Source of the DNA: Escherichia coli
GTDB taxonomy: Bacteria > Pseudomonadota > Gammaproteobacteria > Enterobacterales > Enterobacteriaceae
NCBI RefSeq assembly: GCF_003018255.1
Contig: NZ_CP027440.1
Reading direction: 5' to 3' (one strand)
Length of the DNA: 64,000 nt
Shown: piece after piece, positions 1 through 61,486 of the stretch
How positions within the stretch are numbered: the first letter of the stretch is position 1
How the letters are laid out: every line of letters begins with the position of its first letter
Translations under genes and position numbers: made by a program
The notes under the pieces: model-generated
The model's input: the letters and a program-made list of their open reading frames with translations, nothing else
Told to the model about the DNA's origin: nothing
The model's database searches: none

Positions 1-512
1 TGTTTAATCTCCTGGCATTCTTCAGGAATACCCCCTTTTATTTCCCTGCCATAAGCGCCTACTTTAAACACCACGCACAGGGCATCACGGGAGAGCGACG
101 GGGTCCACCAGGAGTCCATGTTAAACATGGAGGGGATTCTCATTACCCCCAGCTTTTCACAGAGCCAGACAAGGAAATCAGGACGCTTTCTTAACTCGCG
201 TTCAGCGGCTTCAATCATTGCGGCAATCGCCGGTCCTTCAGGGCATGACTCATCAGGTCTGGCAATAAAGCACGGTCCGTCCCCGATAAAAGCCACATCA
301 TCGCGCTTACGCCAGCCCGCAGGCAGAGCACCAGAAAAATAAAACTCACTGATTACGTCCATGGCAAACGGCTTTAAGCGCAATCCGGCAGCGCCTGTAT
401 TTTTCAGTAATGCCCGAAGAATACTGTTGCGTAGCGGTAAAACAGTCTGTTGATATTTGGTGAAATATTTATTTGTCTGCACACGGTCTAATTTGAAATA
501 AAAATATGCCAT
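1..512 (-). CDS. hypothetical phage early protein, N-terminal ~170 codons only (3' end beyond window)
   Basis: Hand translation: ATG at 512-510 preceded by AAGGAACAGG Shine-Dalgarno; frame stays open to position 1. Not in the ORF track because it has no stop in the window. No family recognised. Confidence 0.45.
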   Translation of the reverse strand, partial: MAYFYFKLDRVQTNKYFTKYQQTVLPLRNSILRALLKNTGAAGLRLKPFAMDVISEFYFSGALPAGWRKRDDVAFIGDGPCFIARPDESCPEGPAIAAMIEAAERELRKRPDFLVWLCEKLGVMRIPSMFNMDSWWTPSLSRDALCVVFKVGAYGREIKGGIPEECQEIK

Positions 513-609
513 ATATCCTGTTCCTTATTTTCAGTTTACAGGCGCAGGCAGTCCCCTGACGCGAGCGCCATACTTAAAACGATGTGATATTTAAAGATTT
601 AATGCGGTG

Positions 610-1140
610 TTATTTATTCAGTCCGGCGTCCTGTTCAAAAGGCTCGACATAAAAACTTTCAGCGCCTTTATTCACCTTAATACCGGCAATGCCTTTCACT
701 GCATCCGGCTCCGCCAGGACCGCTTCCTTGTTCACTTCCTCTTTCGTGCGGATGAATCGCTCAAGCCCCATACGGCGCAGCATTTCAATCACACCTTCCA
801 CATCACGGCTGACGCTGCATGATGGATTTCCCAGCCGCCATGATACTGTTCCGGTGGTCAGATTGGCTGTTTTGGTTTTGCCGCCGTTCGTCAGCTCATC
901 GCGGTTGGTTTTGCACCAGTCCTGAATCCCCTTAAAAAGCACTTTGATTTCTTTTTTAAGGTTTTCAATCTGCGGCGTATAACGGGCGGTGATTTCTGCC
1001 ACTTCATCATTCATCGCCGTTTCCAGCCGCAGCGCCTCTCGCTGAATATCGCCCAGGGTACGGATATCGCGGCTGACTTCTTCGCGGGTCTGCGGTGCAG
1101 CCTCGGCTGCGGCCTTTAATTTTGTAACACGTTTAGCCAT
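610..1140 (-). CDS. gam: Gam-like host-nuclease inhibitor (Mu Gam family)
   Basis: 176 aa ORF; sequence (LETAMNDEVAEIT...NRDELTNGGKTKTANL...FIRTKEEVNKEA) closely parallels Mu Gam as recalled; AAGGA RBS upstream of ATG at 1140. Confidence 0.85.
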   Translation of the reverse strand: MAKRVTKLKAAAEAAPQTREEVSRDIRTLGDIQREALRLETAMNDEVAEITARYTPQIENLKKEIKVLFKGIQDWCKTNRDELTNGGKTKTANLTTGTVSWRLGNPSCSVSRDVEGVIEMLRRMGLERFIRTKEEVNKEAVLAEPDAVKGIAGIKVNKGAESFYVEPFEQDAGLNK

Positions 1141-1151
1141 TTTGTTTTTCC

Positions 1152-1445
1152 TTATTGCAGTGTGCCTGATGCTTTATGCACGCGGTGGCGTTTAATGATG
1201 GCATCCGCCCCAAAAGCCTGTACAGATGCCTGAAATTCCGCTGAGAGAAACTGAATAATTTCAGGACTGTGATACTGGAGAATACTTGCATAAACGTCAC
1301 AGAGTGACGTCGGCCTGTTATTCGTATCACGTTCTGTTTTTACATCCACACCAATCTTTTCATGCACTTCAACACAGTCATTGCCTGCCGGTTTTTCGTC
1401 ATGCGAAACATGCTTAAATTCAAAAATAACGCGTACTTTGCTCAT
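1152..1445 (-). CDS. hypothetical small protein (paralog A of a tandem pair)
   Basis: ORF track 1152..1472; likely start is the internal ATG at 1445 (MSKVRVIFEFKHV...) with AGGGG RBS; shares N-terminal motif and a C-terminal segment with the adjacent ORF. Confidence 0.5.
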   Translation of the reverse strand: MSKVRVIFEFKHVSHDEKPAGNDCVEVHEKIGVDVKTERDTNNRPTSLCDVYASILQYHSPEIIQFLSAEFQASVQAFGADAIIKRHRVHKASGTLQ

Positions 1446-1449
1446 GGAA

Positions 1450-1722
1450 TTACCCCTGCTGATTAAATTCATTACCTTTAATAACCCCGGAACGCATGCT
1501 CATATCTTTCATGAGCGCACTGGCTTTCATTGCCACAAGTTCAGCAAAGTCTCTGCTTTCCGCGAGCATAACCACCCCAAAAATCATGGCGGGTCCATCA
1601 CCTTTCTGCTTTATCCCGGTTGAACGTATGTCCAGACTTACCCCCATGCGCACTGTTCCATCAGCGTTTTTATGGATAACGTGCTCCTTGTATTCGAAAA
1701 TAATGCGTACGACTTTACTCAT
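1450..1722 (-). CDS. hypothetical small protein (paralog B of a tandem pair)
   Basis: 90 aa ORF starting MSKVVRIIFEYKEHV; GAGGA RBS; stop overlaps start of the next gene (4 bp), consistent with translational coupling in the early operon. Confidence 0.5.
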   Translation of the reverse strand: MSKVVRIIFEYKEHVIHKNADGTVRMGVSLDIRSTGIKQKGDGPAMIFGVVMLAESRDFAELVAMKASALMKDMSMRSGVIKGNEFNQQG

Positions 1723-2000
1723 CCTCTGGTCCTCGTTCTGTTTGGATAACTGACCCGGCGTCTGACCTCACGGCAGAACCGAATCATGGCATTAAAGGCT
1801 TCTTCCTCCGTCACCGCTTCCGGTATCCCCGGAACCAGTAACTGCTCCTGTTCATCACGTCCATGACGCGCCATAACCTCAATCACATGCCGTACCGTGG
1901 CAGGCTTTCCGGCAACTATCGGCAATGCACCTTCCGGCAGGACGTAACCAAACTCAATAAGACCACTCGACCACGCCCATGCAATGAGATTTTTTTTCAC
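1719..2000 (-). CDS. hypothetical small early protein (GTG start)
   Basis: 93 aa ORF in the tightly packed minus-strand operon; first codon is GTG; no recognisable family. Confidence 0.4.
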   Translation of the reverse strand: MKKNLIAWAWSSGLIEFGYVLPEGALPIVAGKPATVRHVIEVMARHGRDEQEQLLVPGIPEAVTEEEAFNAMIRFCREVRRRVSYPNRTRTRG

Positions 2001-2001
2001 C

Positions 2002-2256
2002 TCACACCTCCCAGTAAACCGTGCAGCCGCTGATGCGGGTGGCCTTCACACGGCGGCGCAGGCCGTTGGTCTGTATGGTGATTTCAATTTCACCGGTTCC
2101 CTGCACGTTGCCTACCGGCGGCGTGGTTTTCAGTGCAAAACGTTGCGGATAGCGCTTACTGCGTTCCAGTACCGCACCGGCAAGTTCGGTCAGACGGCGC
2201 GCGCTGTTCAGGGAGTCGAATAAATTCATTTTGTTACCGCAGGATTGCATATTCAT
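2002..2256 (-). CDS. hypothetical small early protein
   Basis: ORF track 2002..2268; ATG at 2256 has a GAGGTG RBS so is the preferred start; no recognisable family. Confidence 0.4.
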   Translation of the reverse strand: MNMQSCGNKMNLFDSLNSARRLTELAGAVLERSKRYPQRFALKTTPPVGNVQGTGEIEITIQTNGLRRRVKATRISGCTVYWEV

Positions 2257-2268
2257 ATAACACCTCAT

Positions 2269-2490
2269 TTAGCTGACTTGTTTCGCACCAACAGAACGGC
2301 ATATTCCGCTGTAAACGTCTGTCGCACCTTCGCGATCAAGTCCGGCAGATATCACCATTCGTGTGCGGTCATTAAATTCAAAAAGAAAATCGCCACATTC
2401 TTTATTTTCGGCCAGTGAAATCACCTTCACGTTATCGAAATTAACCAGGTAAAAGCGTCCGTAAATATCAGGAATATTAAATACCGCCAT
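2269..2490 (-). CDS. small early protein in the position of Mu kil (73-75 aa)
   Basis: ORF 2269..2496 immediately after the B homolog with a GTGA/TGA start-stop overlap; ATG at 2490 has an AGGTG RBS. Kil assignment is by position and size only. Confidence 0.4.
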   Translation of the reverse strand: MAVFNIPDIYGRFYLVNFDNVKVISLAENKECGDFLFEFNDRTRMVISAGLDREGATDVYSGICRSVGAKQVS

Positions 2491-2492
2491 AA

Positions 2493-3425
2493 TCACACCT
2501 GTGAGAGTAATTCAGGGTTGGTATAAACCTCTTTAAAGGCCGCATTAATATGTTTTTCTGTCAGCGCCGCGCCTTCACCGCTGGCGGTGAGCCACGCCTG
2601 GTTAAGCGTATGTGTCAGAACGCGTAACGCTCCCGGCTTTTCAGCGATAGCCTGCATGACGGCCAGCTCGGCCTCACCACTGATCCCCCACGCCCTGGCA
2701 ATGGCCAGCACATCCGCCTTTTTGGCCTTGCGAAGTTGTTTTGTACGGGCAAGACGGCTGAACAGGCGCGATAAATCATCAAAGGCGCGGCGTCCACCTT
2801 TAAACAATCCGCGCGGGTTACCAATAAGCACCATCCCGATCCCCGTGGCGTCCTGAATTGCCCGGAGTTGCTCCAGACCGTCAATACCAAGATGATCCGC
2901 CTCATCCACAATCACCAGTCCACGCGTTCCCATCAGGCGACGGCGGATGGCGCGGGATAATGCCCCTTTGTTCGCGCGGGTGTAATCAATCCCCAGCGCA
3001 TCGGCCAGCTCCAGCAGACACTCCGTGACGCTGGAGTGCGCGGGTGACAGGGTGATCATCCAGGTGTTTGGTTGCTCCTGGCAGTAATTACGGGCAGTGG
3101 CCGTTTTACCCACACCCGGTACGCCCACAATAACGTTAATACAGCCCATCAGACGAACCGCCTGAAACAGTGCGCGCAGCTCCTGGACTGTCTGCGTTTC
3201 CACAAACTGCGGCGGTTCCGGCAGTGCGCTTTGTTTATTCCAGTTCTCATACCAGGAACGCAGGGAAGCAGCCACAGCAGCGTTATCGCCTTTATATTTT
3301 CCCTTACGGAAAGCCGATAATGTGCCGTCGGAAATTCCCGCCTCTCTGGCGATGGCATACTGCGTCAGTACGCCGCCATCAATAAGTTCATCAATGGTCT
3401 TGATTACATCGTTAATATCAGTCAT
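2493..3425 (-). CDS. MuB-like transposition ATPase
   Basis: 310 aa; Walker A GVPGVGKT, and extended similarity to Mu B as recalled (PEPPQFVETQTV, LVIVDEADHL, KPGALR). Confidence 0.9.
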   Translation of the reverse strand: MTDINDVIKTIDELIDGGVLTQYAIAREAGISDGTLSAFRKGKYKGDNAAVAASLRSWYENWNKQSALPEPPQFVETQTVQELRALFQAVRLMGCINVIVGVPGVGKTATARNYCQEQPNTWMITLSPAHSSVTECLLELADALGIDYTRANKGALSRAIRRRLMGTRGLVIVDEADHLGIDGLEQLRAIQDATGIGMVLIGNPRGLFKGGRRAFDDLSRLFSRLARTKQLRKAKKADVLAIARAWGISGEAELAVMQAIAEKPGALRVLTHTLNQAWLTASGEGAALTEKHINAAFKEVYTNPELLSQV

Positions 3426-3496
3426 ATTATTAACCTCTCATTTGATACCTTGTTTAATCAAATAACCTGAGTCGCCGCTCGGGTTATTTTTTTATT

Positions 3497-5587
3497 TCAG
3501 GCCAGCGGGTCATTTTCTTTTAATTTCGCTTCCAGCAACTGCAATCCCCGCTGGAAATTACGCTCGTATTCTTCATCAGGTTCATCGTCAGCGACCGGTT
3601 GCTGAACGGTCACCGTATTACCCACAGGGCGGTATATGTTTTCCAGCCAGGGCTCCTGCGGCTTGTGCTCCAGCACGTTGACAACCTCATCCTCGGCATC
3701 ACGGATTTTTTCCTCTGCGCGTTTACGCATGCCTTTAAGGCGTTGCTGCTGTTTGTAGTATTCCGCGCTAACCGGGAAGGCTTCGCGTTTATTACCGTCC
3801 CATACCGCCTCGCAAATCACGCTGCCATCCAGGCGACGTACGGTAATTCGTTCGGCATCATGAATGTCATAGCTGATAAGCACCTTACGACCATGCTCGT
3901 CACGCAGCTCGGGCGCGTAGTAAATATTATTCAGCCAGCGTATTTCACAGCGTCTTACAGGGCGTTCCACCATCGGCCGGAACATATCCCGCAGCTCAAC
4001 ATCGGACAGCCATTCAATTTCCGTGTCCTCTTCCGCCAGGCGTTTTTTTCTGAACTCCGCCGGGCTGTAATGCTTGCCGTTCGGCTTCACCGGTAATTCA
4101 TCGTGCGGCCGGTTGTTGTACCACTCAACACCGTCACGAATGGCATCAATCAGTTCAGACCAGGACGGTAAATCACGCATCGCTGACTGCTGCCGGGCGT
4201 TCAGCCGTTTGCCCTGTTGCAGGGCAGTAAATGCCGAGCGTAAATCGCGGTTGGTTTTGCGTAACGTCTCGCGATCTGCACCTTTCCCGAAATAGGTGCG
4301 GTATTTACGGGCTATGCGCATCGGTAATGTGCGGTTAAGCCGTTCGATAATGCCTCGTCCCTGCGGATTACCGGCAATCCCGGTCGGGTGATTAATCCCC
4401 AGTCGCGGCAGTATCCCCACAACCTCCTTATCCAGGATGTCGGCGGTTTCCCCGGAGCCGTTATCCGAGTAATACAGAAACGGTTTGCCGTGATGGCGAA
4501 TGCCGTGCTGTATGGCACCGGCTACGGCGAAAACATTTTCAGCCAGGTCAAGGCTCCAGCCCACCACAAAGCGCGTGCCACCGTCGATAACAAAGGTCAC
4601 TTCCGGTGCAAATGGCCGACCGTGAACCGGGTGTGCGCATTTCAGCTTCATGCCGTGACCGTCACCAATCCAGACATAATTCACCGGCATTCTGGACCAG
4701 TCGCGGCGCGTGAATCCCTCAAGCTGGCGGTATTCACTGCCGGTCACCCGGCCTTTTTGTTTCACCACTTCCGGCAGTTTCTTCATTGCGCGGCGAATGG
4801 TGTCATAAGACGGCATGATATCGAGCATATAAGGCTCATCAGCGTGCCGGTGCTGCCATTCAGCGACAAAATCCTCGTAAGCCTCGGTCATTGGTCGGCC
4901 GTTTGACTGGCGATACTGCGCCAGAAATTCGGGCAGCCAGTTAATATCTTCAGCTTTTATTTCCTGGCGCTTACCCGGTGCCAGTAAAAGCAGGCGTTCA
5001 GCGGCGTTCTGCGCCTTGTTAAAGGCCGCAATCCAGCGTTTCAGCGTTATTTCACTCAACGCACGGCTGTTTCCCTTTTTGGCGTTCGCCGTCTCAACCA
5101 TTGCCACAATGCGCTCGTCCAGTTGCGAACGTGCCAGGTTGTCAACGATAAACCGGATAGCTTTCGCACAGCTGAAACCGGGTTGTTGCGCGACTTTCAT
5201 CACTTCGCTGACGATCGCAATTCGTGCATCAGCCACCTGGCGCTGGTTTTCAGTCAGGGCATTAAGGCGTTCAACCATCAGTTGTGGTGATCCGCGATAT
5301 GCCTCCACCGCATCAACCACGGCAGGCGAGCGTCTGGCCTTTGTCACCACCGGAGCCGGTGATTCATCAGCTTTTTGCGTCATCAGTTGAAGGGCATAAC
5401 GTTCACGCAATACTTGTTGCGCGCCAGAAGGCAAACAATCGATATTAAATTCGATTGCTTTTGTCCCCTTACGTTTGCGTAACATGGCTGCATTTCCCGC
5501 AGCTGCTTTTGTGAGTCGATGGCGAATGTTATGTTCCATCATTGGTAAATCAGGAAGACCAACACATTCTTTTGCTGTTACCCACAT
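3497..5587 (-). CDS. MuA-like DDE transposase
   Basis: 696 aa; N-terminus MWVTAKECVGLPDLP parallels Mu A MELWVSPKECANLPGLP; candidate catalytic D-D-E residues in WIGDGHG, YYSDNGSGE and GIIERLN; GGGGGA RBS. Confidence 0.9.
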   Translation of the reverse strand: MWVTAKECVGLPDLPMMEHNIRHRLTKAAAGNAAMLRKRKGTKAIEFNIDCLPSGAQQVLRERYALQLMTQKADESPAPVVTKARRSPAVVDAVEAYRGSPQLMVERLNALTENQRQVADARIAIVSEVMKVAQQPGFSCAKAIRFIVDNLARSQLDERIVAMVETANAKKGNSRALSEITLKRWIAAFNKAQNAAERLLLLAPGKRQEIKAEDINWLPEFLAQYRQSNGRPMTEAYEDFVAEWQHRHADEPYMLDIMPSYDTIRRAMKKLPEVVKQKGRVTGSEYRQLEGFTRRDWSRMPVNYVWIGDGHGMKLKCAHPVHGRPFAPEVTFVIDGGTRFVVGWSLDLAENVFAVAGAIQHGIRHHGKPFLYYSDNGSGETADILDKEVVGILPRLGINHPTGIAGNPQGRGIIERLNRTLPMRIARKYRTYFGKGADRETLRKTNRDLRSAFTALQQGKRLNARQQSAMRDLPSWSELIDAIRDGVEWYNNRPHDELPVKPNGKHYSPAEFRKKRLAEEDTEIEWLSDVELRDMFRPMVERPVRRCEIRWLNNIYYAPELRDEHGRKVLISYDIHDAERITVRRLDGSVICEAVWDGNKREAFPVSAEYYKQQQRLKGMRKRAEEKIRDAEDEVVNVLEHKPQEPWLENIYRPVGNTVTVQQPVADDEPDEEYERNFQRGLQLLEAKLKENDPLA

Positions 5588-5597
5588 ACATCCCCCA

Positions 5598-5864
5598 TCA
5601 AGCCACTTCTCTGGCGTCCACCTGGTATCTGCTGGGCCAGATTACAGCAGGTTCAACCCCTATTTTTTCGGCGATGGCGGCTTCGTATTTACGGCACTGG
5701 CGGTAAAACACATTGCGCATTGATCCGCTTTTTAATCCTAACTCCCTTTCCAGTTCAGGGAGGTCTGTGCCTTTGTTTTCAAGGGCTGCATATACCGCTT
5801 TAGCAGACCAGTCACACCCCTCTCGAACAAACAAATTATTCGATGCTTGTCTGGATACCCTCAT
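5598..5864 (-). CDS. Ner-like DNA-binding regulator
   Basis: 88 aa; C-terminal VIWPSRYQ and overall alignment to Mu Ner as recalled; AGAGGA RBS; first gene of the early operon. Confidence 0.8.
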   Translation of the reverse strand: MRVSRQASNNLFVREGCDWSAKAVYAALENKGTDLPELERELGLKSGSMRNVFYRQCRKYEAAIAEKIGVEPAVIWPSRYQVDAREVA

Positions 5865-6020
5865 TGTGTGATCCTCTCATGTTTACCTGAACCGATAATC
5901 AAAACCGGTTATCGATTTAGGTAAATCATAATCGCAAAATAATTCGATATCAACGGTTTTTTGCGAGCATATCGAAATTAAATGCGATGTCGATAATTTC
6001 TTTGTTTTATAGGGGGTTAT
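5865..6020. promoter_or_regulatory. divergent immunity/early control region (operators and promoters between ner and repressor)
   Basis: 156 bp AT-rich intergenic region between divergent genes with at least five copies of a CGATA/TATCG half-site (e.g. CGATAA at 5893 and 5991, TTATCG at 5909) in direct and inverted orientation. Confidence 0.55.
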
Positions 6021-6632
6021 ATGGATAAGGCAGAAAAAACCGTATCCAGTGCGGAACGGTTTATTGATATGGAAGGAATAAACCGATTTTCAGAACGCTT
6101 AGCTATGGCTATGGGAAACATGACAAACGTCGAACTGGCGACCCTTTGTGGACTATCTGAAGCCACAGTAAGAAATTACAGGAAGGGGAAAAACTTCCCT
6201 CCTTTGGATAAACTGGCCTTAATAGCTAAAGCCTGTAATTGTTCACTCGAATGGTTGGCCACAGGCAAGAACGAAGATGAATGCGGAAAAATCGAAAACA
6301 ATTGCGATTCAGGTTCGGGTATTGATCAGGCGCTTAGCTCTCTAAGCCCCCAAGAGAAGCAATTAATCCTTACATTCATCAGGCGAGAAGGTACTAATAA
6401 CCTTGTCAGGCTGGCAGCAATGAATACATCTACAATCAGCCAGGATGCGGTAGAAAGCATCATTGATGCCTTGCCATTACGTCCCGTACTAAAAAATGCA
6501 ATAAAGATAGGAATGGCGGGAAGTGAAGAAACAGACAAAGAGATTTTGCGCGTTATTGAGAAGTACAACTCGAGCAATAACGCCACCCAGGAATCAGGGG
6601 CAGTGACAGTAAAGAAAAATGTTGTTGGTTAA
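6021..6632 (+). CDS. prophage repressor, cI/XRE-type helix-turn-helix
   Basis: 203 aa; N-terminal HTH (ELATLCGLSEATVRNYRKGKNFPPLDKLALIAKACNCSLEWL); transcribed divergently from ner toward the prophage end as in Mu c; AGGGGG RBS. Not similar to Mu c itself. Confidence 0.7.
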   Translation: MDKAEKTVSSAERFIDMEGINRFSERLAMAMGNMTNVELATLCGLSEATVRNYRKGKNFPPLDKLALIAKACNCSLEWLATGKNEDECGKIENNCDSGSGIDQALSSLSPQEKQLILTFIRREGTNNLVRLAAMNTSTISQDAVESIIDALPLRPVLKNAIKIGMAGSEETDKEILRVIEKYNSSNNATQESGAVTVKKNVVG

Positions 6633-6776
6633 GCGCCATCGCTATCATGAGGTGGTGCTGTAAATACATATAGAGATCATATGACTCATCCCAAGATAAT
6701 CACGCTATTGAATAGTAATTCATGATGATTATCATACTGATTATAGTTAGATCGATTATGTGAGCATTTTGGCAGT

Positions 6777-6810
6777 TTGAAGATGTTTTGAAGATGTTTT
6801 GAAGAAGATT
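6777..6810. repeat. tandem direct repeats (TTGAAGATGTT x2 plus a variant) in attL, candidate internal transposase-binding sites
   Basis: Seen directly: TTGAAGATGTT TTGAAGATGTT TTGAAGAAGATT about 100-135 bp from the inferred end, similar spacing to Mu L2/L3. Confidence 0.45.
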
Positions 6811-6890
6811 TTAAGGGTAAATTAGCAGTATCAAATGTGTCGCCGTTTTTTGATCTTTTGACTATTTGTTGAGCAGTCGGTATCAAAAAG

Positions 6891-6912
6891 AGTTTTCCGT
6901 CCGAAGTATACA
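6891..6912. repeat. terminal transposase-binding site and prophage left end
   Basis: Reverse complement TGTATACTTCGGACGGAAAACT resembles the Mu terminal site (TGTAT...ACGAAAA) and ends in the TG/CA dinucleotide. Confidence 0.5.
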
Positions 6913-6981
6913 TCACCTGTTTTATTTCAGCATCTTACAGGTGATTTCACCTCCTTTCACTAAAACCCTTGTCGGTATCAA

Positions 6982-7311
6982 ATGATTCACCTGGTTACAA
7001 ACGATGGATTGATTGATAACCTGCCACAAGGATGTTGCGTGGAAGTAGCCTGTCTGGTTGATGCTAATGGCATTCAGCCGACCAAAGTCGGTACGTTACC
7101 TTCGCATCTGGCCGCCCTGATGCAAACCAACATCAACGTACAGACGCTGCTGACCGAAGCCATTCTTACGGAAAATCGCGACCGTGTTTACCACGCTGCG
7201 ATGATGGACCCGCATACTGCCGCCGTGCTGGGCATTGATGAAATATATGCTCTTGTTGACGACCTGATTGCCGCCCACGGCGACTGGCTGCCAGGCTGGT
7301 TGCACCGTTAA
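6982..7311 (+). pseudogene. melA: melA 3' fragment (alpha-galactosidase, glycoside hydrolase family 4 C-terminus)
   Basis: 109 aa ORF with GH4 C-terminal motifs (NDGLIDNLP...VEVACLVD...MMDPHTAA); in-frame stop 7 codons upstream at 6961, so the 5' part of the gene is absent. Confidence 0.6.
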
Positions 7312-7958
7312 GGGGTAATCGCTTCCGGCGCTCTGGTGATTAAGCCAAAGCGCCGTAGCTGGCGGCAATGAAAGCGAGCGAGGAATATCACCGTCGTTAA
7401 TGCGCCAAGCAGCGCGCAGAACATATCGGATTGCGTGTCCCACTGGTCGCCCTGGGTGCCGAGAAAATCATCCGCTCCCTGACCCATTGCCAGCGCCGCC
7501 CACCACTCGATTAATTCATACATCGCGCTTATCGCCAGCGCCACGCAGCAGACCAGAAACGCCACCATCTTATGTCCGTGAACGTACATCCCGCGCACAA
7601 GGATCTCTCGTGCCACCAGTGCAGGCACCAGCCCCTGGAAAAAATGTCCCAGTTTGTCATACGGATTACGGCTCAACCCCAGCCATTCCTGCACCTCAAA
7701 ACCAACGGGGACTTTCGCGTAGGTGTATTGTCCGCCGACCATCAGGATGATGGCGTGAAAGAAAATGAGCGTATAGAGCAGCGGCGTTAACGGATAACGT
7801 TTAGCGGTGGCAAGCAGTAGCGGCACGACAATAATCACCGGTGTCACTTCCATCAGCCAGGTGAGTTTGTCATTGGCCGAAATGCCGGTATAAATCAGGA
7901 TTAACGTTAGCGCCAGTGCGCCGGTGTTAAGAATTAACGGCTTGAGTGTGCGGGTCAT
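7308..7958 (-). CDS. yjdF: inner membrane protein YjdF
   Basis: 216 aa hydrophobic ORF in the K-12 position next to fumB. Confidence 0.75.
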   Translation of the reverse strand: MTRTLKPLILNTGALALTLILIYTGISANDKLTWLMEVTPVIIVVPLLLATAKRYPLTPLLYTLIFFHAIILMVGGQYTYAKVPVGFEVQEWLGLSRNPYDKLGHFFQGLVPALVAREILVRGMYVHGHKMVAFLVCCVALAISAMYELIEWWAALAMGQGADDFLGTQGDQWDTQSDMFCALLGALTTVIFLARFHCRQLRRFGLITRAPEAITP

Positions 7959-59638: not shown

Positions 59639-61486
59639 ATGCCAATTCAGGTCTTACCGCCACAACTGGCGAACCAGATTGCCGCAGGTGAGGTGGTCGA
59701 GCGACCTGCGTCGGTAGTCAAAGAACTGGTGGAAAACAGCCTCGATGCAGGTGCGACGCGTATCGATATTGATATCGAACGCGGTGGGGCGAAACTTATT
59801 CGCATTCGTGATAACGGCTGCGGTATCAAAAAAGACGAGCTGGCGCTGGCGCTGGCGCGTCATGCCACCAGTAAAATCGCCTCTCTGGACGATCTCGAAG
59901 CCATTATCAGTCTGGGCTTTCGCGGTGAGGCGCTGGCGAGTATCAGTTCGGTTTCCCGCCTGACGCTCACTTCACGCACCGCAGAACAGCAGGAAGCCTG
60001 GCAGGCCTATGCCGAAGGGCGCGATATGGACGTGACGGTAAAACCGGCGGCGCATCCTGTGGGGACTACACTGGAGGTGCTGGATCTGTTCTACAACACC
60101 CCGGCGCGGCGCAAATTCCTGCGCACCGAGAAAACCGAATTTAACCACATTGATGAGATCATCCGCCGCATTGCGCTGGCGCGTTTCGACGTCACGATCA
60201 ACCTGTCGCATAACGGGAAAATGGTCCGCCAGTACCGCGCCGTGCCGGAAGGTGGACAAAAAGAGCGCCGTTTAGGGGCGATTTGCGGCACCGCTTTTCT
60301 CGAACAAGCGCTGGCGATTGAATGGCAACACGGCGATCTCACGCTGCGCGGCTGGGTGGCAGATCCGAATCACACCACGCCCGCACTGGCGGAAATTCAG
60401 TATTGCTACGTGAATGGTCGCATGATGCGCGATCGCCTGATCAATCATGCGATCCGCCAGGCCTGCGAAGACAAACTGGGGGCCGATCAACAACCGGCGT
60501 TTGTGTTGTATCTGGAGATCGACCCGCATCAGGTGGACGTCAACGTACACCCCGCCAAACACGAAGTGCGTTTCCATCAGTCGCGTCTGGTGCATGATTT
60601 TATCTATCAGGGCGTACTGAGCGTGCTACAACAGCAACTGGAAACGCCGCTACCGCTGGACGATGAACCCCAACCTGCACCGCGTGCTATTCCGGAAAAC
60701 CGCGTGGCGGCGGGGCGCAATCATTTTGCTGAACCGGCAGTTCGTGAGCCAGTAGCTCCGCTTTACACTCCTGCGCCCGCCTCAGGCAGTCGTCCGGCTG
60801 CCCCCTGGCCGAATGCGCAGCCAGGTTACCAGAAACAGCAAGGTGAAGTGTATCGCCAGCTTTTGCAAACGCCCGCGCCGATGCAAAAACCAAAAGCGCC
60901 AGAACCGCAGGAACCTGCACTTGCGGCGAACAGTCAGAGTTTTGGTCGGGTACTGACTATCGTCCATTCCGACTGTGCGTTGCTTGAGCTCGACGGCAAC
61001 ATTTCACTTTTAGCCTTGCCAGTGGCAGAACGTTGGCTGCGTCAGGCACAATTGACGCCGGGTGAAGCGCCCGTTTGCGCCCAGCCGCTGCTGATTCCGC
61101 TGCGGCTAAAAGTTTCTGGCGAAGAAAAATCTGCATTAGAAAAAGCGCAGTCTGCCCTGGCGGAATTGGGTATTGATTTCCAGTCCGATGCGCAGCATGT
61201 GACCATCAGGGCCCTGCCTTTACCCTTACGCCAACAAAATTTACAAATCTTGATTCCTGAACTGATAGGCTACCTGGCGAAGCAGTCCGTATTCGAACCT
61301 GGCAATATTGCGCAGTGGATTGCACGAAATCTGATGAGCGAACATGCGCAGTGGTCAATGGCGCAGGCCATAACCCTGCTGGCGGACGTGGAACGGTTAT
61401 GTCCGCAACTTGTGAAAACGCCGCCGGGTGGTCTGTTACAATCTGTTGATTTACATCCGGCGATAAAAGCCCTGAAAGATGAGTGA
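59639..61486 (+). CDS. mutL: DNA mismatch repair protein MutL
   Basis: 615 aa [39 protein letters not shown]... (GHKL ATPase). Confidence 0.97.

Follow-up and report, generated by a model that had tools for sequence, protein, structure and literature searches.

Mu-like prophages of the Sp18 type, which are known from Shiga-toxin-producing Escherichia coli, are reported to be common and to vary in their location (PMC2669165, PMC7430833, PMC10132054), and Sp18 itself is reported to be intact and packaged (PMC2669165). In the literature we found no published description of the end sites of Sp18-type elements. For other transposable phages, a target duplication of 5 bases (Mu) or 6 bases (B3) has been reported (PMC8705779), and the spacer between the L1 and L2 sites of Mu measures 74 bases (PMC3820752).

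The locus described here is part of a 64,000-nucleotide stretch of E. coli DNA (hereafter the window). Its positions 1-6999 belong to a Mu-like prophage of the Sp18 type, of which they form the repressor-proximal part; the prophage lies on the minus strand and sits in melA. Positions 6776-6999 very likely form attL of this transposable prophage, with the terminus at 6999 and, as read from the sequence, three putative transposase sites that share the core TTTGATACYG. The reading rests on the position of the terminus, the positions of the repeats, their conservation and the gene content, and it would add protein binding as well as roles for the spacer and for the array of short motifs that are discussed below. 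The copy in melA is thus one more insertion of an already known element, with an ordinary left end.

The preliminary description of this DNA had placed the left end of a Mu-like prophage here, which is correct in kind. The genes next to the end, read inward from it, are a convergent repressor gene, a ner-like gene, A and B:

2493-3425, minus strand: MuB-family AAA+ ATPase, 310 aa (Pfam Phage-MuB_C, 2.5e-25)
3497-5587, minus strand: MuA-family transposase, 696 aa (Pfam Mu-transpos_C, 1.5e-17, and HTH_Tnp_Mu_1)
5598-5864, minus strand: ner-like gene, 88 aa (Pfam HTH_35, Ner type)
5865-6020, no strand: putative divergent operator/promoter region, from its position between the repressor and ner-like genes
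6021-6632, plus strand: repressor gene, 203 aa, CI/HTH_3 type (an HTH protein in annotated relatives)

The 696-aa transposase aligned with MuA over the full length at 23% identity (E 1e-13), and by this alignment and the Pfam matches a DDE transposase and a MuB ATPase lie inside the end, after the repressor and ner-like genes. The repressor gene reads toward the end of the element, as Mu c does, with no sequence relationship between the two. Promoter-like sites were seen in the operator region on the minus strand (5953-5925 and 5993-5966), at numbers not above shuffle counts. A promoter and terminator scan of 5800-7100 likewise gave counts at or below those of shuffles, with nothing convincing within 6633-6999, and an Rfam scan of 5500-7400 (E up to 1) gave no match. 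An ORF of 76 aa on the minus strand (6686-6916), which overlaps L2, L3 and the tandem repeat, was rejected as a gene, because it has no Pfam match, is not annotated as a CDS in relatives and would be put out of frame by the 11-base indels of two of them (L004 and L005). The operator region (5865-6020) contains repeated TATCGA/GATTAT motifs, and GATTAT is found three to four more times between the repressor stop and the tandem repeat (6695-6760), a segment that also carries an inverted repeat (6695-6702 / 6726-6733); the GATTAT motifs in 6695-6760 may be a second set of repressor sites.

The end itself, from the innermost element outward and into the host gene, consists of the following features:

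6776-6815, minus strand: 11-base tandem repeat, the phased TTHAAA array (CTTAAAATCTT CTTCAAAACAT CTTCAAAACAT CTTCAAAC)
6824-6852, minus strand: L3, putative third transposase site (TTTGATAC core at 6828-6835, 165 bases from the terminus)
6876-6904, minus strand: L2, putative second transposase site (TTTGATAC core at 6880-6887, 113 bases from the terminus)
6891-6912, minus strand: 22-mer, variable sequence that flanks L2 on its outer side (reverse complement TGTATACTTCGGACGGAAAACT)
6912-6970, minus strand: L1-L2 spacer, candidate pac or bending region, near-invariant across immunity lineages
6971-6999, minus strand: L1, putative terminal transposase site (TTTGATAC core at 6975-6982, 18 bases from the terminus)
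6999, minus strand: left-end terminus, the last base of the element being the A of ...CCTGGTTACA and the minus strand reading 5'-TGTAACCAGGTGAATCA... (from melA homology, ten insertions and LC727881)
7000-7311, plus strand: 3' part of the interrupted melA (from the melA alignment)

The boundary between prophage and host DNA lies at 6999/7000, where the junction reads ...CCTGGTTACA|AACGATGG, as follows from the start of melA homology, from the sequence shared by independent insertions and from the annotation of relatives. With 6600-7400 as query, melA homology began at 7000 in 5401 of the 5426 complete E. coli genomes, and alignment with uninterrupted melA gives the empty site as ...GTCCGT|AACGATGG; in the search with 6600-7400, positions 6600-7005 matched a prophage that adjoins etk in strain EH031. 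Ten independent insertions (in melA, etk, an Stx2c phage, ydeE, an ABC permease gene, betT, a type I restriction gene, a PilZ gene, torZ and a TerC gene) share ...TGATTCACCTGGTTACA up to the base that equals 6999 and continue into unrelated flanks. The 367 bases of 6633-6999 recur at 283 places in 232 genomes, and the sampled flanks were all different genes, as expected for insertion at many unrelated chromosomal sites. Most of the sampled matches stop at the base that equals 6999, and the rest end 2 bases short, with a terminal substitution in those lineages. The depositors of LC727881 ended their Mu-like phage at the base that matches 6999, and the annotation of Sakai puts the end of Sp18 within a few bases of the equivalent position. 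Furthermore, the terminal bases 6998-6999 are CA, as at Mu-type ends, and the minus strand starts with TGTAACC. The prophage-melA junction of the window itself was present in none of the 5426 complete E. coli genomes.

The boundary had earlier been put at about 6912, 87 bases further in. The empty-site comparison, which had been set beforehand as the test by which that position was to be judged, gave 6999/7000 and not 6912. It follows that the insertion interrupts melA at codon 350 and that the left end of the element is not truncated, which bears on prophage boundary calls and on the annotation of the disrupted melibiose locus. Comparison of independent insertions was decisive here; resemblance to Mu sequence cannot call ends when the transposase is this diverged.

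On the host side of the junction, an ORF of 109 aa (6982-7311) starts with an ATG inside the L1 site and runs in frame into the 3' fragment of melA (MIHLVT|NDGLIDNL...). An exact protein look-up gave no match for this fusion ORF, and it is probably incidental. The yjdF gene (7308-7958, minus strand) overlaps the melA stop codon, and there is no melB between melA and yjdF. In K-12 the order is melA-melB-yjdF. The melA-yjdF arrangement without melB was found in a minority of E. coli genomes (H2-H7; L020). In most of the sampled genomes the match on the melA side ends at the melA stop (7311).

The core TTTGATACYG occurs on the minus strand at 18, 113 and 165 bases from the left terminus (6973-6982, 6878-6887 and 6826-6835, respectively). 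The slightly wider pattern TTTGATACYR was found four times in the 64 kb window versus 0.6 times expected, and three of these occurrences lie on one strand within 157 bases; the fourth, TTTGATACCG at 59821-59830, is isolated and far from the prophage, consistent with chance. The TTTGATAC core starts at exactly 18, 113 and 165 in all six immunity lineages, with intervening sequence that is only 50-65% identical. Mean pairwise identity among the six lineages was 0.94-0.96 for the L1 and L2 cores, 0.84 for L3 and 0.95 for the 17 terminal bases. At the right ends of relatives (LC727881, EH031 and Sakai Sp18) the same core was found at 18, 40 and 75, in the same orientation to the terminus, and a core at 18 is present at both ends in all lineages. 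The predicted sites are therefore laid out as at Mu-type ends, with a terminal site, a gap and two more sites on the left and three closely spaced sites on the right.

From this repetition, register and conservation we infer that the cores represent L1-L3 and R1-R3 of the MuA-family transposase of Sp18-type elements. The transposase would bind three sites of the same orientation, each with the core TTTGATACYG. L1 would abut the terminus (core 18 bases in) and put the catalytic site on the terminal YA, and L2 and L3 would follow 95 and 147 bases further in than L1. The resulting layout would be asymmetric in the manner of Mu, with L1, a gap, L2 and L3 at one end and R1, R2 and R3 at the other, the latter taken from relatives.

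Another finding concerns position 6912. Judging from the alignment of lineages, this is a mosaic breakpoint, where a shared terminal module meets a lineage-specific immunity region, and not the element boundary. Positions 6912-6999 (1-88 from the terminus) show almost no variation in any lineage, and from position 89 inward the identity collapses. The 22-mer at 6891-6912 (positions 88-109) does read TGTATACTTCGGACGGAAAACT in reverse complement, as had been quoted. In the preliminary description it was taken as a Mu L1-like terminus at about 6912, with the TTGAAGATGTT repeats about 100 bases inside as L2/L3. The 22-mer indeed starts with TGTAT like Mu L1 and contains CGGAAAAC, which recalls the CGAAAA of Mu; moreover, 6912 is a real discontinuity, at which identity between lineages collapses, and the repeat is at a Mu-like L2/L3 distance if measured from 6912. 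However, all independent insertions include 6913-6999 as part of the element, and melA sequence is not reached before 7000. The resemblance to Mu L1 turned out to be at chance level, since 8666 of the 127,948 window positions (6.8%) reach the same score or a better one in a semi-global alignment with the 27-base Mu L1, and a Mu site sequence is not expected in the first place, given a transposase that is only 23% identical to MuA. The 22-mer is also non-terminal and unrepeated at right ends, and no other stretch of the end is as poorly conserved (mean pairwise identity of 0.50 among the six lineages), and the tandem repeat is absent from right ends and changes in copy number. An end at 6912 is refuted by the empty-site and multi-insertion comparisons, and we attach practically no probability to it.

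Hardly more credible, and still very improbable, is that 6912-6999 constitutes a separate module (a packaging cassette or a short mobile insertion) lying outside an older end, with the 22-mer as the ancestral terminus. A near-invariant block of 88 bases beside a mosaic interior would agree with this, as would two matches (H73 and H74) that cover the terminal 88-base block alone, at 97.7%, and the Yersinia phage vB_YpM_5, which has a Mu-like spacer instead, so that the spacer is exchangeable. On the other hand, the block holds L1 in the register of R1 (core at 18) and hence carries the working terminus, vB_YpM_5 exchanges the spacer only and keeps the terminal L1, and the other lineages lack a TGTAT terminus-like motif at the position of the 22-mer.

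The spacer between L1 and L2 (6912-6970) contains a perfect 9-base inverted repeat (6912-6920 / 6937-6945) with a 16-base loop (hairpin z-score of -4.7), as well as direct repeats of the TCACCT type. In vB_YpM_5 (L023) the L1 and L2 cores are kept and the spacer is swapped for one that aligns to Mu 30-67, indicating that the spacer behaves as a module apart from the transposase sites. In Mu, the L1-L2 spacer contains the pac site and is the place where HU binds. By analogy, the spacer at 6912-6970 probably serves packaging recognition and/or DNA bending.

The tandem repeat lies inward of L3, and 20 bases separate its start from that of the L3 core. Tandem Repeats Finder reported 6776-6805, with period 11, 2.7 copies, 100% matches and a score of 60, and a repeat search added a third copy (83%) that ends at 6815. 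Within the 64 kb window, exact TTGAAGATGTT is confined to positions 6777 and 6788, which shows the repeat to be real and not due to chance. To this extent the preliminary description holds; its placement of the repeats at L2/L3 does not, because they lack the TTTGATAC core, have no counterpart at right ends and vary by one unit in either direction. Strain 110 (L004) has one unit more and NE 1092-2 (L005) one unit less, in elements that are otherwise near-identical. The repeat can be described in terms of a shorter motif, TTHAAA, which is found at +185, +196, +207 and +218 from the terminus, and even the shortest allele (L005) keeps at least three motifs. We observed TTHAAA phased at 10-12 bases at +185, +196 and +207 in L003, L009, L010 and vB_YpM_5, and in degenerate form in L007 and L008. 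In Mu itself (L022, 205-222), TTCAAAA occurs twice inside L3, at 205 and 216, with a spacing of 11 bases. The four-motif phased chain was obtained in 0 of 5000 shuffles, and in six of the eight ends the counts were 0-18 in 5000; these counts are indicative only, as the motif was chosen after the data had been seen and the lineages share ancestry. The background density of TTHAAA is 0.03 motifs per 60 bases, and no phased array was seen at right ends. The tandem repeat is the local version, prone to slippage, of this phased TTHAAA array next to L3.

Whether the array, or the tandem repeat, has a function in cis at the left end or is neutral slippage-prone DNA was weighed on both sides. It lies at the same distance from the terminus in lineages with unrelated repressors, in vB_YpM_5 and in Mu, its background density is low, at least three motifs persist in the shortest allele, and in its plus-strand form (GTTTTGAAG) it loosely resembles the operator/enhancer repeat of Mu (CTTTTCAGTAAT). 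Against this stand the polymorphic copy number, the degenerate form in two lineages, the right ends without array, the post hoc choice of the motif and the lack of supporting literature among the sources searched, and such periodicity is common in AT-rich intergenic DNA. On balance we consider a function rather unlikely. If there is one, the array may be an intrinsic bend, may bind a host architectural protein or may offer accessory sites to the N-terminal (enhancer-binding type) domain of the transposase. A comparison by eye of the cores and the array with the IHF consensus gave no full match, and a literature search for a site of Fis or another factor at Mu positions 200-230 yielded nothing usable. 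Repressor operators, which were also considered for the tandem repeat, are unlikely since the array theme is retained in lineages whose repressors are unrelated; no array-like motif was found in the operator region (5865-6020).

The 64 kb window does not contain right-end sequence, and the target duplication was derived from relatives. Flanking direct repeats of 4 bases were found in all eight complete relatives (GATG, TATG, GTTG, AAGA, CAGA, GTCG, TAAA and CACG; L003, L011/L002, L012/L006, L013/L016, L014/L017, L015/L018, L021 and L024), and the annotation of LC727881 gives a 4-base duplication too. The 4-base repeat requires the right terminus to be at TATAGCGCGG..., and the same placement sets the R1 core at 18, the register of L1. 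None of the eight relatives has the 5-base duplication of Mu, and no placement of the terminus gives one. With the terminus so placed, the right termini of relatives read TATAGCG (TA and not TG), and the left termini of L007 and L008 are TATAACC. A further regularity, the same base flanking the 4-base target on both sides, held in five of the first six pairs, failed in Sp18 and 6535WT, and was dropped.

By analogy with these relatives, AACG (7000-7003) is predicted to be one copy of the 4-base target duplication of the insertion in the window. The other melA junction is predicted to read ...GGCAACGTCCGTAACG|TATAGCGCGGCGATTTTTTTGATACC..., with AACG repeated and an element of about 39 kb. Species-representative genomes were scanned for exact matches to the left junction as observed and to the right junction as predicted, the latter with 0-4 free bases, and none was found.

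Several of these side observations may interest specialists in transposition, namely the 4-base repeats, the TA termini, the exchangeable spacer and the array shared with Mu. A more far-reaching proposal would be that the TTHAAA/TTTTGAAG array is an undescribed conserved cis element of Mu-type left ends (a bend or an accessory protein-binding array in transpososome assembly) and that Sp18-type transposases cut with a 4-base stagger on TA/CA ends. We regard this combination as speculative and as somewhat less probable still than a function of the array as such. The array is common to Mu and Sp18-type phages despite transposases that are only 23% identical.

Compared with known systems, the element is closest to Sp18 of Sakai O157:H7 and to LC727881 (Mu_JNE082796), the latter being 97.5% identical over 79% of window positions 1-6999. 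The terminal 88 bases are near-identical to those of both, and the core positions and the lengths of the A and B proteins are the same; for Sakai Sp18 the terminal sequence and the core layout are identical. The high DNA identity, which includes the termini, makes the element a member of the Sp18 type. The exact attL type (6633-6999, 367 of 367 bases, 100%) is found in EH031, Show KS 470-1 and a plasmid of strain 8479. The element differs from Sp18 across the immunity region, which begins at position 89 from the terminus and extends inward to include the repressor gene, and from Sp18 and the other relatives in its insertion site, which here is melA.

Similarly, in the Yersinia phage vB_YpM_5 (MT374853, Muvirus) the TTTGATAC cores are found at 18/122/164 and 18/40/75, L3 is followed by a phased TTHAAA array, and the transposase gene is 81.6% identical in DNA. 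Unlike the element described here, with its Sp18-type block and inverted repeat, vB_YpM_5 has a Mu-like L1-L2 spacer (Mu 30-67).

With Mu, the element shares a repressor gene that is convergent on the end and followed by ner, A and B, three sites per end with a terminal L1, a long L1-L2 gap and a close R1-R2 pair (core starts 22 apart), a left terminus that reads TGTA and insertion at many unrelated sites; the two TTCAAAA motifs 11 bases apart inside Mu L3 can be compared with the TTHAAA array. In contrast to Mu, its transposase is only 23% identical to MuA, its core is TTTGATACYG and not the ...CGAAAA-type 22-mer, all six cores point the same way (those of the right end being taken from relatives) whereas Mu R3 is inverted, and its repressor is of the CI/HTH_3 type and not Mu c. 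The right terminus of relatives is TA, and the flanking repeats are 4 bases long as against 5 in Mu (PMC8705779). The layout of the Sp18-type end is as expected for a diverged relative of Mu.
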